A stretch of 64,000 nucleotides of DNA from Escherichia coli (GCF_050920415.1 NZ_CP169309.1); one strand, 5' to 3'. Positions 1,077 through 6,710 are shown, counted from the first letter of the stretch. Notes: generated by a model not told the origin, from the letters alone. Translations and numbers: made by a program.

Positions 1077-1439
1077 TTGATGGGGATAGAATTTGTTTTG
1101 CCTTACCCGCCGACGGTAAATACCTACTGGCGTCGTCGTGGCAGCACATATTTTGTATCAAAAGCAGGGGAGCGTTATCGCCGGGATGTGGCGCTTATTG
1201 TTCGCCAGCAGCGGCTGAAATTAAATCTGTCCGGAAGGCTGGCAATAAAAATTATTGCAGAGCCACCGGATAAGCGCCGTCGTGACCTGGACAATATTCT
1301 GAAAGCACCACTGGATGCACTGACACATGCGGGACTGCTTATCGACGACGAGCAGTTTGATGAAGTTAATATTATGCGCGGTCAGGTTGTTCCCGGTGGT
1401 CGGCTGGGGATAAAAATCACAGAACTGGAGTGCGCATGA
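1077..1439 (+). CDS. rusA: RusA crossover junction endodeoxyribonuclease (Holliday junction resolvase)
   Basis: 120-aa translation recognisably matches the RusA family; typical nin-region position upstream of Q. Confidence 0.9.
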   Translation: MMGIEFVLPYPPTVNTYWRRRGSTYFVSKAGERYRRDVALIVRQQRLKLNLSGRLAIKIIAEPPDKRRRDLDNILKAPLDALTHAGLLIDDEQFDEVNIMRGQVVPGGRLGIKITELECA

Positions 1440-2101
1440 ATAACCAGTATTTACAGTTTGTGCGTGAGCAGCTCACGATCGCCACCGCTGATTTGAGTGG
1501 AGCAACAAAAGGTCAGCTTGAAGCCTGGCAGGAGAATGCCATGTTCAATACAGGGCGTTACAGACGTAAAAAAATCCGGTACCGCGATAAGGTCACTGGA
1601 AAAATAGTAACGCTGGATAATCCACCGATCCCGGGAAAGCAATCGCTGGCGAAAGGTTCATCAATTGCCCTGGTCAGTCCGGTTGAGTTTTCGACATCAT
1701 CATGGCGACGCGCCGTTCTGTCTCTTGAAGAACATCATAAAGCCTGGCTGCTGTGGTGTTACAGCGGTAGCATTTGCTGGGAGCATCAGATCGCGATAAC
1801 GCAGTGGGCGTGGATTGAATTTAATGCTCAATCCGGTACCAGAAAAATTGCAGGAAAAACTCTGGTGCGCCTGAAGACGTTGAGCTGGTTGGCGGCGCAG
1901 GCGGTAAAAGCTGAGCTTTTTGGTGGGGAAGGTTACGAATACCAGGAACTGGCGTTACTGGTGGGAGTAACAACCAAAAACTGGTCCAAGACATTTACTG
2001 GTCACTGGGTTGCAATGAAACACATTTTTCATCGGCTGGATAGTGAAGCTTTATTGTTAGTGGAGAGAACACGTTCAAAACAAAAGGCGGCATTTTCATA
2101 G
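1430..2101 (+). CDS. Putative late-gene antiterminator (Q-family by position)
   Basis: 223-aa ORF immediately upstream of a promoter plus short-transcript terminator (pR'/tR' arrangement) and the late region; assignment by synteny, sequence not confidently recognised. Confidence 0.45.
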   Translation: MRMNNQYLQFVREQLTIATADLSGATKGQLEAWQENAMFNTGRYRRKKIRYRDKVTGKIVTLDNPPIPGKQSLAKGSSIALVSPVEFSTSSWRRAVLSLEEHHKAWLLWCYSGSICWEHQIAITQWAWIEFNAQSGTRKIAGKTLVRLKTLSWLAAQAVKAELFGGEGYEYQELALLVGVTTKNWSKTFTGHWVAMKHIFHRLDSEALLLVERTRSKQKAAFS

Positions 2102-2108
2102 CAAAGTA

Positions 2109-2137
2109 TTGCAAAAGTAGATTAAAACGCATATATT
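2109..2137 (+). promoter_or_regulatory. pR'-like late promoter (TTGCAA -17 bp- TATATT) immediately after the Q-like stop
   Basis: -35 TTGCAA at 2109-2114, 17-bp spacer, -10 TATATT at 2132-2137. Confidence 0.4.
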
Positions 2138-2188
2138 TCGTGTAAATCTGATATTTTGCCGTTTTTATACGTGATGGCAAAGCTAGTA

Positions 2189-2214
2189 AAACCCGCGACC
2201 GAGCGGGTTTTTTA
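2189..2214 (+). terminator. tR'-like rho-independent terminator (aaacccgc-gaccga-gcgggttt + T-run)
   Basis: Perfect 8-bp stem, 6-nt loop, followed by T-run; about 50-70 nt downstream of the pR'-like promoter, as for lambda 6S RNA. Confidence 0.6.
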
Positions 2215-2287
2215 TCCCCCCAAAAAATGGCATAGACATTAAACGTGATGACGATTGTGCCAATACTTTCTCCATCAATGACGCCCC

Positions 2288-2317
2288 TTGACTGCATGGA
2301 ATCCAATTTGTTATGTA
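2288..2317 (+). promoter_or_regulatory. Candidate sigma70 promoter for the moron membrane-protein gene (TTGACT ... TGtTATGTA)
   Basis: Consensus-like -35 TTGACT at 2288-2293; extended -10-like TGnTATGTA about 18 bp downstream; lies after tR' and before the ATG at 2356. Confidence 0.3.
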
Positions 2318-2355
2318 ATATGTGTTGATATTTTTGAGTTGTTAATGGTGTTACT

Positions 2356-3069
2356 ATGAATGACAGTGCTCTGCTCAGAAACTCTTCACTTTTTGTTGCT
2401 TATATGGGCTGTCTAGGATGGGGAAGCGCTTATTTCTATGGATGGGGTACTTCATTTTACTATGGCTTTCCATGGTGGGTTGTCGGGGCTGGTGTCGATG
2501 ATGTTGCACGAAGTTTGTTTTATGCTGTGACAGTTATCGTTATATTCCTTATTGGATGGGGAGTTGGTATTGTTTTCTTTTTGGGCATAAAACAAAAGCG
2601 CAATATACAAAATTTGAGTTTTATCCGGCTTTTTCTCGCGATATTGCTGCTTTTTATTCCACCTGTTCTGGAGTTTTCGGTAATTCATCAGCATGTTGAG
2701 CCAGATGTACTGATTTTCTGCATTCTTGCTGCCTTTACAATCACGCTTTTTGTCAGGTCTGGAAGAAGACTTGTTTCAGTCAAATGTTTTTCGGAAATGT
2801 CTTTTATTCGCCATCACCGAATTGAGTTCATGATGGCTGGGTTTATGATTTATTTCTGGGCATTCTCTCTTATTGCCGGTTGGTACAAACCACAGTTTAA
2901 GAGGGAATATCAGGCGATCCACTATGAGAATGTATGGTATTACATTATTGCGCGTTATGATGATCGTCTGGTGTTATCGAAATCATACAGGAGTGGGGGT
3001 AAGAAATTCGTTATATTTAATAGCGGAAATATTAATGATTTTGAAATTAATACTATCAGAGTGCGTTAA
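2356..3069 (+). CDS. Uncharacterised integral membrane protein (about 4 predicted TM helices, Trp/Tyr/Gly-rich N-terminus, about 60-aa soluble C-terminal tail); moron
   Basis: 237-aa ORF, AT-rich codon usage unlike flanking phage genes, hydrophobic segments visible in translation; no family recognised. Confidence 0.7.
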   Translation: MNDSALLRNSSLFVAYMGCLGWGSAYFYGWGTSFYYGFPWWVVGAGVDDVARSLFYAVTVIVIFLIGWGVGIVFFLGIKQKRNIQNLSFIRLFLAILLLFIPPVLEFSVIHQHVEPDVLIFCILAAFTITLFVRSGRRLVSVKCFSEMSFIRHHRIEFMMAGFMIYFWAFSLIAGWYKPQFKREYQAIHYENVWYYIIARYDDRLVLSKSYRSGGKKFVIFNSGNINDFEINTIRVR

Positions 3070-3243
3070 AATTTCTTGAGTAATGAAGATTTTTACTGCC
3101 CGGCATTGAGCGGTTTTTTTATGCCAGAAAAATGGTGTGGTACATAAAATGTGCTGGTGGTTATTAATACCGGTCTTTCAGCTTGCTGGCTTTTTCGACA
3201 AGAGTTATTGGTATGTCACGTTAACCAATAAAGAGAAAAAGAC

Positions 3244-3441
3244 ATGCTAAAACAGCAGGATATGACCGAAACAGCCAGAGTGGTGTTTAATGAATTAAGC
3301 GTCACTGAACCGGCAACAGTTGGGGAAATTGCGCAGAATACTTACCTTTCACGCGAACGCTGCCAGTTAATACTGACCCAGCTTGTGATGGCGGGTCTGG
3401 CAGATTATCAGTTCGGTTGTTACAGACGCCTTCCGCAGTGA
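3244..3441 (+). CDS. Small (65 aa) putative winged-helix/HTH DNA-binding protein
   Basis: Helix-turn-helix-like segment (ATVGEIAQNTYLSRERCQLILTQLVMAGLA); own rho-independent terminator overlapping the stop. Confidence 0.45.
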   Translation: MLKQQDMTETARVVFNELSVTEPATVGEIAQNTYLSRERCQLILTQLVMAGLADYQFGCYRRLPQ

Positions 3442-3452
3442 AGGCTTTTTAC
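3428..3452 (+). terminator. Rho-independent terminator (gccttc-cgcagt-gaaggc + TTTTT)
   Basis: 6-bp perfect stem plus T-run overlapping the stop of the 65-aa ORF. Confidence 0.5.
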
Positions 3453-3591
3453 TTTGTGGTAATGGGCGGCTGGTGGGTGTTAGCGGCACCTGCCAGCCAT
3501 CTGCTCATGTGTTGAGGTCACAAGCAAACCTCAGGCCCATCTGCTTTGCGCAAAAGCGGTATGAGCCTATCAGAGAAGTGCTTATTGATCT

Positions 3592-4677
3592 ATGGCTAAT
3601 ACTGTAAAAATATCCAGTTGTGAGTTAATCAACACTGATTGCCTGGAATTTATCCAGACCTTATCGGAAAACTCTGTCGATCTTATAGTCACAGACCCGC
3701 CATATTTTAAAGTGAAGCCCGAGGGCTGGGATAACCAGTGGAAGGGCGACGATGATTACCTAAAATGGCTGGACCAGTGTCTGGCTCAGTTCTGGCGGGT
3801 ACTGAAGCCTGCCGGAAGTCTTTACCTGTTTTGTGGTCATCGCCTGGCATCTGATATCGAAATCATGATGCGTGAGCGCTTTAATGTGCTGAACCACATT
3901 ATCTGGGCGAAGCCGTCCGGACGCTGGAACGGGTGCAACAAAGAAAGCCTGCGGGCGTATTTCCCGGCAACAGAGCGCATTCTGTTTGCCGAACATTATC
4001 AGGGGCCATATCAGCCAAAAAATGCCGGCTATGCGGCAAAGGAGCGCGAGCTTAAACAACACGTCATGGCCCCGCTGATTTTTTACTTTCGTGATGCGCG
4101 TGAATCACTGGGAATAACGTCCAAACAGATAGCGGAAGCCACCGGAAAGAAAAACATGGTGTCGCACTGGTTTGGTACCAGTCAGTGGCAGTTACCGAAC
4201 GAAGCTGATTACAGAAAACTGCAGGCGCTGTTCGCGCGTGTTGCAGAAGAAAAACACCAGCGTGGGGAGCTGGCAACGCCACACCAACTGCTGGTCAGCA
4301 CATACAGTGAACTGAACCGGCAATATGCCAGTCTGCTTGAGGAATACAAATCTCTGCGGCGTTATTTTTCTGTATCGGCCGCCGTTCCTTATACGGATGT
4401 CTGGACGCATAAGCCCGTACAGTATTATCCGGGTAAGCATCCCTGCGAAAAACCGGCGGATATGTTGCGTCAGATAATTTCTGCCAGCAGTCGTCCGGGG
4501 GATGTGGTTGCGGATTTTTTTATGGGATCGGGGGCAACAATAAAAGCAGCAATGGGATTGGGGCGTCGCACGATTGGGGTTGAACTTGAGTCCGGGCGTT
4601 TTGAACAAACAGTTGGTGAAATATTGGTGCTGAACGATAAATTGCGAAATGCACAATTAGATAAGAACAGGAGCTAA
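3592..4677 (+). CDS. DNA methyltransferase, beta-class (N6-adenine or N4-cytosine); apparently orphan
   Basis: Motif IV DPPY near N-terminus (LIVTDPPYF), motif I FxGxG-like (DFFMGSGAT) near C-terminus; no restriction endonuclease ORF adjacent. Confidence 0.85.
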   Translation: MANTVKISSCELINTDCLEFIQTLSENSVDLIVTDPPYFKVKPEGWDNQWKGDDDYLKWLDQCLAQFWRVLKPAGSLYLFCGHRLASDIEIMMRERFNVLNHIIWAKPSGRWNGCNKESLRAYFPATERILFAEHYQGPYQPKNAGYAAKERELKQHVMAPLIFYFRDARESLGITSKQIAEATGKKNMVSHWFGTSQWQLPNEADYRKLQALFARVAEEKHQRGELATPHQLLVSTYSELNRQYASLLEEYKSLRRYFSVSAAVPYTDVWTHKPVQYYPGKHPCEKPADMLRQIISASSRPGDVVADFFMGSGATIKAAMGLGRRTIGVELESGRFEQTVGEILVLNDKLRNAQLDKNRS

Positions 4678-5197
4678 TCCTCGATTAATATCTAAGCCAA
4701 GCAGGATGCTTGGAAGTTCTGATATATTCTTATCGTTTTTCGGTATTTAAAACTGATTTTCGCTGGTTGCGAAAGCACGTGGTCGGGCACTGCGTTCACA
4801 CATGCAGGAGGGTGTGAAGTCAGCTTTTTTTCTGTGTATTCAGATGGCGTTCTGATTCTATAACGAGTTACGTGGACATCAGGGATGGAGAGAATAGGAA
4901 CGCCATCTTAATACATTTTCCCCGTTTATTTGATATATCTTCCGGATAAGGGATTAGGTCTGGTTTTTTATGTCATTCAATAACGCTCTTCTATACTGTA
5001 TACAATACTTTATCCTGGCAGTGTGTTTAAAACCTGAACTTATCCTTTGTTTCGTTTATAGACAGAAGGGTTAATATCGACTTATCATCAGCAGGATGGC
5101 AACAGATGTGTAAGCAGCTGGTCACCAGTTATACTTCAGTGGTACTTCTGAGTGCTTCTCTCCGTGAAATGATTATCATCCAGATGACAGGAGTAGA

Positions 5198-5476
5198 GTG
5201 AATATTGATGATATTTCCAGGTGCTCCAGCTTGTTGCAGCGTATTGAGGATGTTAATGCTGAACGAGCCAGGGCCTTTAGTCGTTTGACAGTTATATTTT
5301 CTACCCCTGATCGCCTTTCAGGAAAGAACATTGTTTTATTAAACAGTGATGCCATCCATAAGGTTTTTGAAGAGTTCATGGCTGCTAATTCAGAATTGCT
5401 GGCTCTTGTTGAGGAATACAACGAGATAGCCAGCCGTGTCGGTATGGATGAATTCAACGTCATACTTCGTGGATAA
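5198..5476 (+). CDS. Hypothetical protein (92 aa), GTG start with AGGAG RBS
   Basis: ORF preceded by AGGAG at 5187-5191 and followed by a strong terminator. Confidence 0.45.
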   Translation: MNIDDISRCSSLLQRIEDVNAERARAFSRLTVIFSTPDRLSGKNIVLLNSDAIHKVFEEFMAANSELLALVEEYNEIASRVGMDEFNVILRG

Positions 5477-5499
5477 AAACATGCTTCATATTTTCTGTT

Positions 5500-5524
5500 A
5501 GCTCGCTACGGCGAGCTTTTTTTG
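5500..5524 (+). terminator. Rho-independent terminator (agctcgc-tacg-gcgagct + T-run)
   Basis: 7-bp perfect stem, tetraloop, T-run of 8. Confidence 0.65.
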
Positions 5525-5657
5525 TATCTGAGCCACACCTGGCGCACATCAAAAACACAGAGCCTTTCAGGAGGTGCTTACGGGATTGTCAGTGTGACTT
5601 TCACTGTGGGCTGGTAACCATCTGGCGCAGGCTCGTCTACGCAAAGGAAAAGTCACG

Positions 5658-6083
5658 ATGTTAGGTATTTTCAAAAAGAAAACCCGCAAGGCCATCACAG
5701 AAGTGAAGAAGATGGAGAACCGTGATGCGGTGGAGGCGACCGTCTGGGGCGCATATTCCATTGCATATGCCGACGGCACCTGCGATGCGAAAGAAATCGC
5801 AGTACTGGAGAAAACTATTGCTGCGCTTCCTGCTTTTGCACCGTTCTCTGGTGAGATTGCCCAGATGAGCGCCAATATCCGCGCCCGTTATGAAGCGTCA
5901 CCGCGTAGTGCGAATGCGCATGCATTGCGTGAGCTGGCTGATGTGGCGGGGACAACTGAGGCGGTTGACGTGCTTTGCCTCTGTCTGGATATCGCTGATC
6001 AGGATGGCATTGGTCCGGATGAAGAAGCGCAGCTCAAGAAAATTGCACAGGCGCTTCAGTTACCACTGGAGCAGTATCTGTGA
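5658..6083 (+). CDS. TerB-like (tellurite-resistance TerB / DjlA N-terminal domain family) protein
   Basis: 141-aa helical protein whose acidic C-terminal motif (LCLCLDIADQDGIGPDEEAQLKKIAQAL) is typical of TerB-domain proteins. Confidence 0.55.
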   Translation: MLGIFKKKTRKAITEVKKMENRDAVEATVWGAYSIAYADGTCDAKEIAVLEKTIAALPAFAPFSGEIAQMSANIRARYEASPRSANAHALRELADVAGTTEAVDVLCLCLDIADQDGIGPDEEAQLKKIAQALQLPLEQYL

Positions 6084-6232
6084 AAAGTGCGGGCCTTGTG
6101 CTGGCTGCCATCCTGTTGTTTCTGGTAGTGGCAGTGGATTTCACTGGATGGCTGATGTCGGTACTGGCTGATGGTGTGCTGGTGGCGATGGTAACGGTCT
6201 TACTCTGGCCTTTACTTCGCAAATCTGAATAA
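6080..6232 (+). CDS. Possible small hydrophobic membrane protein (about 50 aa, GTG start overlapping the TerB-like stop)
   Basis: Unannotated frame reading VKSAGLVLAAILLFLVVAVDFTGWLMSVLADGVLVAMVTVLLWPLLRKSE; two hydrophobic stretches; start codon uncertain. Confidence 0.3.
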   Translation: MKSAGLVLAAILLFLVVAVDFTGWLMSVLADGVLVAMVTVLLWPLLRKSE

Positions 6233-6317
6233 ACAGCCTACAAAAGGTATCTGCGGGTACCTTTGATAAAGTTTTTTAGGGCCGCTGATGGTCCTTTTTA
6301 TTTACAGGAGAATAAAT

Positions 6318-6710
6318 ATGTCTGAACCCTTATCCGGTTCCGGCACTGCTGTGGCGCTCGGCGGGGCGACGGTATTCGGGCTGTTTACCGGGACGGATTT
6401 CGGGATTGTATTTGGTGCGTTCGCTGGTGCGTTATTTGTGGCAACAATGCCGCAGACACTTTCAGCCTGGCGTGTGGCTGCACATTTTCTGGTGTCCTTT
6501 ATTGTTGGTGTGCTTGGGGCCCGTGGTGTGGCCGGTTACATGGCGGAACGTATTGGGTTTAACAGTGCTTCCGTTGATGCGTTGTGTGCGGTCCTGGTGT
6601 CGGTGCTCTCAGTAAAAGTCCTGTCATTCATCCACCAGCAGGAGATTACATCACTGGTATCCGGTCTGTTCTCCCGTCAGCGTGGAGGAGGTGGTGGTAA
6701 TGACAAATAA
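6318..6710 (+). CDS. Putative holin (multi-TM membrane protein, Gly-rich C-terminus)
   Basis: ATG at 6318 preceded by AGGAG; about 3 hydrophobic helices; lies upstream of the endolysin. Confidence 0.55.
   Translation: MSEPLSGSGTAVALGGATVFGLFTGTDFGIVFGAFAGALFVATMPQTLSAWRVAAHFLVSFIVGVLGARGVAGYMAERIGFNSASVDALCAVLVSVLSVKVLSFIHQQEITSLVSGLFSRQRGGGGGNDK

Follow-up and report, generated by a model that had tools for sequence, protein, structure and literature searches.

The interval downstream of the late-gene antiterminator gene Q was analysed in a 64,000-nt stretch of Escherichia coli DNA (NZ_CP169309.1; from here: the window), where positions 2109-4677 hold genes for a membrane protein, a 65-aa winged helix-turn-helix (wHTH) protein and a DNA methyltransferase. 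We conclude, at a probability of roughly 0.72, that two unrelated units make up this interval as a mosaic within the late operon, controlled by Q, of a lambdoid prophage of the Q82 type. The first unit (approximately 2220-3100) would be an AT-rich moron encoding an inner-membrane protein of the TfpB/STM1630 family that was inserted after the late terminator tR'. The second unit (approximately 3100-4677) is probably a conserved late cassette of the wHTH protein, a structured leader and a methyltransferase of the M.EcoGII type. An earlier note on this DNA, made from the sequence alone, had described a single uncharacterised three-gene cluster and a candidate for prophage-encoded defence. The three open reading frames (ORFs) on the + strand (2356-3069, 3244-3441 and 3592-4677) are indeed present 3' of Q and tR', whereas the cluster as such did not survive the comparison of related loci, as the genes differ in their distribution.

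Two independently inherited units

The three genes are judged to be two independently inherited units and not a single module because of their separate distributions and because of a mosaic joint at a degenerate copy of tR'. Among 5426 complete E. coli genomes searched, the whole 2.8-kb block was found in 159, the membrane gene in 459 at a coverage of at least 80% (1196 when any match was counted) and the pair of wHTH and methyltransferase genes in 1868, with up to 8 copies per genome. Phage records, including phiP27, 1720a-02 and many Shiga toxin 2 (Stx2) phages, matched the second half of the block only. A viral comparison set comprised 78 related IMG/VR contigs with sequence upstream of the methyltransferase gene. 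The pair stood without the membrane gene in 67 of these loci; the membrane gene was present in the other 11, behind two types of Q, with a different Q type upstream of it in two IMG/VR loci. Conversely, the membrane gene occurred without the pair in phage 434, in UPEC957C, on a plasmid of enterotoxigenic E. coli (ETEC) and in Salmonella.

A GC content of 0.35-0.41 was restricted to the membrane-gene segment, compared with approximately 0.50 in the flanks, while the wHTH and methyltransferase genes (approximately 0.45-0.53) had the same composition as the flanking phage genes. Of the AT-rich foreign block proposed earlier, only the part with the membrane gene therefore remains. The spacers on the two sides of this gene resemble different phages: positions 2102-2355 are similar to the spacer between Q and the membrane gene of phage 434, and positions 3070-3243 to the spacer between tR' and the wHTH gene of phages 1720a-02 and phiP27. 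The degenerate second copy of tR' at 3099-3132, for which no stable hairpin was predicted (z-score 0.33), is taken to mark the recombination joint at which the two units meet.

The membrane gene and the cargo slot after tR'

The membrane protein, to which no family could initially be assigned, matched phrog_1521 (E 1.4e-85), and the Pfam family PF27470 'TfpB' is precomputed on all 104 homologues, the protein's own 90% cluster among them. The PGAP name 'STM1630 family' is carried by a gene 89% identical to the membrane gene. A profile of the TfpB/STM1630 family retrieved nothing but PF27470 proteins. A search of 1.84 billion proteins recovered 72 cluster representatives at E <= 0.001, which makes this a small family, and its members come from Enterobacteria, Pasteurellaceae, Neisseria and Moraxella. 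A Pfam-A scan of the protein with a library version older than PF27470 yielded no significant match, and an NCBIfam scan of the membrane and wHTH proteins gave no informative match. The Pfam name presumably derives from Moraxella TfpB.

Hydropathy analysis gave four clear transmembrane segments, in agreement with the number noted beforehand, and alignments revealed a conserved aromatic and glycine-rich motif (AYxGxxGWGSAYFYGWG...YYGFPWW) near the N-terminus of the family members. An AlphaFold2 model based on a 41-sequence alignment that included distant members (predicted local distance difference test, pLDDT, 78; predicted template modelling score, pTM, 0.71) consists of the conserved N-terminal helix, hydrophobic helices and a five-strand C-terminal beta domain. 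Family members in the AlphaFold database matched this model with TM-scores of 0.7-0.9; a previous model from 28 close homologues had reached a pLDDT of 62 and was not used. According to the positive-inside rule, with charged loops at 78-87 and 134-154, the C-terminal domain is probably periplasmic. The protein is a functionally uncharacterised member of a catalogued family.

STM1630, other PF27470 proteins and the phage 434 protein CPT_434_68 share 46-56% identity with it, together with the N-terminal motif, the transmembrane helices and the C-terminal beta domain. The phage 434 gene occupies the identical position: in this phage, as in O157:H7 prophages, a Q82-like Q and tR' have the homologue as the next gene behind them. 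The Q upstream of it in UPEC957C is of another type, and tRNA genes come after it. Other copies differ in their setting. The Salmonella homologue (L017, 5001-5717) adjoins sseJ, as STM1630 does; the locus was identified as STM1630, a stand-alone chromosomal remnant. On the ETEC plasmid NZ_CP122717 (L007, 5000-5713) the copy lies 870 bp from eltA and is divergent from eltAB, which encodes the heat-labile toxin (LT), and a further remnant of the membrane gene (L008, 5001-5635) is located beside iroBC and a tRNA-Arg gene. Distant members are solitary chromosomal genes; in Pasteurellaceae and Moraxella-like genomes they have housekeeping genes around them.

A promoter had been suspected after tR'. 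A promoter-like element in front of the membrane gene (2288-2317) is kept in five independent copies, namely those of the window, phage 434, UPEC957C, the ETEC LT plasmid and E. coli M7424, with the consensus TTGAC(T/G), an 18-nt spacer and TGnTATG(T/A)(A/G); the homology of the ETEC plasmid copy begins exactly at the -35 hexamer. The gene also displays two hallmarks of a moron. It is present or absent at one and the same site, the remaining loci being empty or holding other cargo, and it deviates in base composition (GC 0.36-0.41 compared with approximately 0.50). A further hallmark, a terminator of its own, was lacking: in the five loci checked, the sequence 3' of the membrane gene contained no stable hairpin with a U tract behind it. 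The degenerate tR' copy was considered for this role and rejected, since it has no stable fold.

The earlier note had regarded the region 3' of Q and tR' as a moron hotspot and had called for a comparison of related prophages. In the 78 loci, Q and the wHTH gene were separated either by an empty stretch (approximately 240 nt) or by 0.8-3 kb of AT-rich DNA, and the comparison supports the interval after Q/tR' as a variable cargo hotspot. Other slot cargo had a GC content of 0.34-0.44 and included the defence systems Kiwa (KwaA, E 2e-83; KwaB, E 4e-148) and PD-Lambda-5 (components A and B), a Ser/Thr kinase with a PP2C phosphatase, an AbiL-like ATPase and, in phiP27, a GIY-YIG protein matching PD-Lambda-1. 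OmpC-family porins, lipoproteins and a CPBP protease were also found there. Being one of several cargoes of this slot and preceded by its own conserved promoter-like element, the membrane gene is a plausible candidate for an exclusion or defence function, a role suggested by its location only, or for lysogenic conversion. A search against PADLOC-DB v2, which had been suggested as a check for defence functions, returned 0 families for the membrane protein and a marginal, non-significant match for the wHTH protein (E 0.0035). Patchy presence, deviant composition, a promoter-like element and a site that also takes up known defence systems are shared with known morons and prophage defence hotspots such as HK97 gp15, the P2/P4 hotspots that Rousset et al. 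reportedly described in 2022, and the stx and nmpC genes 3' of Q; the membrane gene differs from these in the missing terminator and the missing PADLOC match.

Within the preferred mosaic, its own promoter probably drives transcription of the membrane gene in the lysogen, and Q-modified polymerase would additionally transcribe it late in the lytic cycle. Our best guess for the protein is an envelope effect that would help the lysogen, by a block to superinfection or by another form of lysogenic conversion.

Lysogenic conversion could also be taken in a narrower sense, in which the protein is an envelope factor for host adaptation, serving for instance stress tolerance or virulence, and unrelated to phage defence. 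This is possible, though on balance doubtful. Copies outside intact prophages near eltAB, sseJ and the iro locus speak for it, as do the solitary chromosomal members and the porins and lipoproteins in the same slot. For STM1630, a transcription start of its own has been mapped and expression rises in macrophages; its deletion, however, had no phenotype during growth in LB or inside macrophages (10.1101/689075). Results for STM1630 in motility screens were inconclusive, and its adjacency to virulence genes, like that of the other copies, may just reflect common prophage ancestry.

We consider it unlikely, if worth keeping in mind, that the TfpB/STM1630 protein is an unrecognised single-gene, membrane-embedded exclusion or defence determinant, with the leader and the optional wHTH gene as, secondarily, a control device of M.EcoGII-type methylases. 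Its own promoter would then drive the gene in the lysogen, and lambdoid prophages would repeatedly have acquired it at the post-tR' hotspot where Kiwa and PD-Lambda systems are also found.

A role as a late accessory of the lytic cycle, for instance in the timing of lysis or in membrane integrity, without expression in the lysogen, appears quite improbable. The membrane gene is always in sense orientation and the first gene of the late operon, 5' of the holins, and must therefore be transcribed by Q-modified polymerase. Yet most closely related prophages lack it, some of its homologues stand alone on chromosomes outside any phage context, and in the case of STM1630 a separate start site gives expression where there is no phage; searches that included phrog, NCBIfam and Pfam showed no resemblance to holins, antiholins or spanins that are known.

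The slot between tR' and the late cassette offers a practical site to hunt for anti-phage genes, with the TfpB/STM1630 gene and the unassigned cassettes described below as candidates. The TfpB/STM1630 family and the leader of the methyltransferase gene are the two subjects that we consider worth pursuing.

The late cassette of wHTH protein, leader and methyltransferase

The methyltransferase shows the motif order of the beta class, as had been proposed, with TDPPYF at residues 34-39 followed by FMGSG at residues 310-314, and its matches to the beta-class structures RsrI, CcrM and MboIIA were split into N-terminal and C-terminal stretches. Over 344 residues it shares 86% identity with M.EcoGII, the sequence of which was taken from the SUPREM supplement as machine-read text with a few errors. 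The same value of 86% applies to the reconstructed ancestor Anc291 and to the phage 1720a-02 enzyme, which was named a close relative of M.EcoGII by Murray et al. 2018 (PMC5778455). The chromosomal copy of E. coli O104:H4 differs from the window's enzyme at 48 of 343 aligned residues (approximately 86% identity). This copy is 94% identical to M.EcoGII and has the same wHTH gene upstream, consistent with it being M.EcoGI. The motif order, the location in a prophage after Q/tR', the 65-aa wHTH gene and the leader are common to M.EcoGII, M.EcoGI and the enzyme of the window; here, though, a cargo gene and a decayed copy of tR' are located upstream instead of an intact tR'. PADLOC returned only generic MTase_II models for the methyltransferase (E 2e-152). 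In line with the absence of a cognate endonuclease noted before, no ORF of a size fitting an endonuclease lies beside 3592-4677 on either strand, the RefSeq annotation of the identical locus shows no such gene, and the 78 loci are arranged alike.

M.EcoGII methylates adenine in any sequence context, is toxic on expression and is active when cloned alone (PMC5778455). M.EcoGI and M.EcoGII are both silent in the lysogen, and the authors propose for M.EcoGII a protection of phage DNA from restriction (PMC5778455). Non-site-specific methylation is retained by Anc291 and SUPREM (Anc284), both of which are reconstructed ancestors of this clade. We infer that the methyltransferase of the window is non-site-specific, too, and its role is most likely phage counter-defence rather than host defence. 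In the lysogen, transcripts from the late promoter pR' would end at tR' and leave the toxic methylase silent, as judged from M.EcoGI and M.EcoGII. Upon induction, read-through mediated by Q would lead to the methylation of many adenines in the replicating phage DNA, and the progeny would be protected from restriction on entering another host. Expression of the methylase would be limited or timed by the leader and possibly by the wHTH protein as well.

Relative to the ATG of the methyltransferase gene, the wHTH gene occupies -348 to -154 in 78/78 loci, with at least five types of Q upstream. The order of the two genes is the same in Klebsiella and Salmonella prophages, the pair is also found in Providencia, and in Stx phages it lies between Q and stx. 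In phiP27 (L23/L24) and 1720a-02 the same pair has 85-91% nucleotide identity to the window and the order is likewise Q, slot, wHTH gene, methyltransferase gene; the slot of phiP27 contains the PD-Lambda-1-like GIY-YIG gene in place of the membrane gene, and in both phages tRNA genes and stx follow the methyltransferase gene, whereas this place in the window has neither tRNAs nor a toxin gene.

The wHTH protein is identical to that of phage 1720a-02 at 63/63 aligned residues. Among seven copies of the gene, 24 of the 30 variable sites are third codon positions, and the proteins differ pairwise by 0-5 amino-acid changes (0-3 compared with the copy of the window). By this pattern, the protein is judged to be real and under strong purifying selection. 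Its Pfam matches (TrmB, MarR, DprA_WH) were weak (E >= 0.003), and a sequence search of the PDB gave a chance-level match only. The terminator that had been attributed to the wHTH gene corresponds to the hairpin with U5 over its stop codon (3428-3450), the stem of which is preserved through compensatory changes in Klebsiella and Salmonella. A hairpin is thus present, but it is weak (z-score -0.14).

The wHTH protein is an add-on to the methyltransferase cassette and not an obligatory part of it. The gene occurs without the methyltransferase in an Stx2d prophage, where a different HTH protein follows, and in another prophage in which DUF3927 is next. The former, in E. coli M7424 (L015, 3688-7237), has Q, the membrane gene and the wHTH gene ordered as in the window and, in the place of the methyltransferase, a 237-aa HTH-domain protein directly 5' of tRNAs and stx2d. 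The leader and the methyltransferase gene without the wHTH gene were observed in six loci (L140, L148, L153, L161, L196 and L207; from Kluyvera, Trabulsiella, some Enterobacter and others); in L196 the leader is found directly 3' of Q and a terminator. A regulatory function of the wHTH protein is put forward as a hypothesis only, and a function as reader of N6-methyladenine or as shield against methyl-dependent restriction is speculation; the Pfam search of the protein gave no Mrr_N or DpnI-type match.

The leader is at least as conserved as the genes on its two sides. In 75 loci with a methyltransferase less than 95% identical to that of the window, the leader (measured over the 150 nt between the genes) had a mean nucleotide identity to the window of 94.5%, the wHTH gene one of 93.7% and the methyltransferase gene one of 87.9%; the corresponding values for Klebsiella and Salmonella were 78-81%, 69-77% and 73-74%. 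The leader folded below shuffled controls (z-scores -3.1 and -2.8). A search with an 18-nt core in one-genome-per-species contigs detected the element in many Enterobacterales, from Escherichia to Providencia and Morganella, always approximately 130 nt 5' of a related methyltransferase gene. The covariance model R1 recovered it in 32/32 loci, and in the model-based alignment 87.8% of the cells were paired, compared with 28-43% when the partners were slid. Seven base pairs showed compensatory change, a level reached by 9/500 shuffles, and four of the seven belong to the long-range helix that covers positions -14 to -1 before the AUG (helix 3; 3517-3527 with 3578-3591). This helix was lost when RNAalifold was applied to a MAFFT alignment of 24 leaders in which Providencia was misaligned, and the model-based alignment was used instead. 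No Shine-Dalgarno sequence was found in the 15 nt before the methyltransferase AUG, and an Rfam scan of 3442-3591 gave no match at E <= 1. The leader probably restrains the translation of a dangerous methylase, which would provide a testable account of how an enzyme toxic to its host is held back and bears on the use of M.EcoGII in chromatin footprinting.

The arrangement recalls the C proteins of restriction-modification systems, small HTH proteins encoded 5' of a methyltransferase that is harmful if mistimed. An inverted repeat and a structured region between the wHTH and methyltransferase genes add to the likeness. In contrast to those systems there is no restriction enzyme, the fold is a winged helix with weak TrmB/MarR-like matches, leader and methyltransferase occur without the wHTH gene as the latter does without the methyltransferase, and M.EcoGII is active alone.

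That the methyltransferase is instead a site-specific orphan, active in the lysogen as an epigenetic regulator or for protection of the chromosome, has little probability in our judgement. Its target-recognition region is unlike that of M.EcoGII at many positions, M.PflMI, the nearest site-specific relative cited, shows that specificity is possible in this family, and upstream there are a possibly active promoter and no strong terminator before the gene. Against this stand the 86% identity to M.EcoGII and Anc291, the likewise non-site-specific SUPREM, and the lack of expression of M.EcoGI and M.EcoGII in their own lysogens.

Several observations weigh against the mosaic account and the mechanism attached to it. 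The divergent target-recognition region is one of them and the missing phenotype of the STM1630 deletion another. The promoter-like element has a weak -10 and was not listed by the consensus scan. The absence of a terminator behind the membrane gene, together with the degeneracy of the tR' copy, could permit read-through into the wHTH and methyltransferase genes, which would conflict with a strictly silent methylase if transcription were not halted by the hairpin at 3428-3450, by Rho or by the leader. With regard to the leader, the alignment was fitted to the model, the search pattern predetermined its 5' core, and the double changes came mostly from one clade (Providencia/Morganella).

Least probable is the idea that all three genes form one prophage defence or superinfection-exclusion module expressed in the lysogen, which their adjacency on the same strand 3' of tR', the promoter-like site in front and the real defence systems in this slot of other prophages might suggest, but which is largely refuted by the distribution data and is at odds with the joint between the genes, with a methyltransferase family characterised as silent in lysogens and with the outcome of the PADLOC search. 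The description as an uncharacterised cargo or defence candidate holds for the membrane gene and not for the pair, which includes the characterised M.EcoGI/M.EcoGII locus. The methyltransferase and its wHTH partner are known and very common late genes of lambdoid prophages. About one third of the complete E. coli genomes carry the pair, usually annotated as 'hypothetical protein' and 'DNA methyltransferase', and naming it a late anti-restriction cassette rather than a defence system would avoid mis-annotation.

Prophage setting and further observations

E. coli chromosomes match the window at 100% identity, and the place is a lambdoid prophage. The order on the + strand is DUF968, RusA, Q, membrane-protein gene, wHTH gene and methyltransferase gene; 3' of the latter follow a small ORF, TerB, DUF3927, two holins and an endolysin. 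The coordinates are compiled in Table 1.

Table 1. Positions and supporting evidence of the annotated elements in the window
Feature	Position	Strand	Evidence or detail
Late-gene antiterminator Q, Q82 type	1430-2101	+	phrog_304 'anti-termination protein Q-like', E 2.9e-104
pR'-like late promoter, TTGCAA-17-TATATT	2109-2137	+	consensus scan, 9/12 matches
tR' intrinsic terminator, 9-bp stem then U run	2188-2217 (hairpin 2188-2211)	+	fold and homology
Promoter-like element	2288-2317	+	-35 TTGACT 2288-2293, 18-nt spacer, TGnTATGTA 2309-2317
TfpB/STM1630-family inner-membrane protein, 237 aa, AT-rich cargo	2356-3069	+	phrog_1521, PF27470, PGAP name
Degenerate second tR' copy (direct repeat D2)	3099-3132		74% identical to 2192-2225
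65-aa winged-helix protein, first gene of the pair	3244-3441	+	phrog_331, E 1.4e-37
Hairpin + U5 over wHTH stop codon, possible weak terminator or attenuator	3428-3450	+	scan; 6-bp stem, z-score -0.14
Structured leader, approximately 135 nt: long hairpin and multi-stem domain pairing -14 to -1	3458-3591	+	conservation, folding, covariance model
M.EcoGII-family beta-class N6-adenine DNA methyltransferase, 361 aa, orphan	3592-4677	+	homology and motifs
92-aa ORF	5198-5476		phrog_2873; strong terminator 5500-5517
TerB-family gene	5658-6083
DUF3927 gene	6080-6232

Q shares 77% identity with the Q82-like protein of phage 434. The pR'-like segment aligns with the intergenic region between Q and the membrane gene of that phage and presumably acts as a pR'-type promoter. 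The strong terminator tR' is homologous to the annotated phage 434 terminator 3' of Q; its fold (-14.2 kcal/mol, z-score -4.04) was as good in 0/200 shuffles. The short transcript from pR' to tR' (2141-2212) gave a sub-threshold Rfam match to the Salmonella small RNA isrJ (23.4 bits, E 0.38), the sole match in 1900-6400, and the isrJ family may represent the leader RNA of a prophage late promoter.

At the 3' end of the methyltransferase gene, homology to other phages stops approximately 25 codons before the stop codon (approximately 4604-4677) and the last approximately 17 residues are unrelated, which suggests another mosaic joint. The stretch from the methyltransferase gene to the holins (4678-6232) is a second cargo interval, which in Stx phages contains tRNAs and stx; a search for such tRNA genes in the interval of the window found none. 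It begins with 520 nt of non-coding, AT-rich DNA that includes a 25-nt inverted repeat (4835-4859 / 4891-4915).

In the slot after tR', AT-rich genes without an assignment were observed in five further loci (L083, 1285-3308; L070, 2117-3400; L039, 2470-3402; L045, 2814-3530; L046, 2892-3371), among them a three-gene cassette encoding proteins of 322, 130 and 221 aa. None of these genes had a PADLOC match, and five (322, 427, 310, 238 and 159 aa) had no NCBIfam match either; they are possible undiscovered defence genes.

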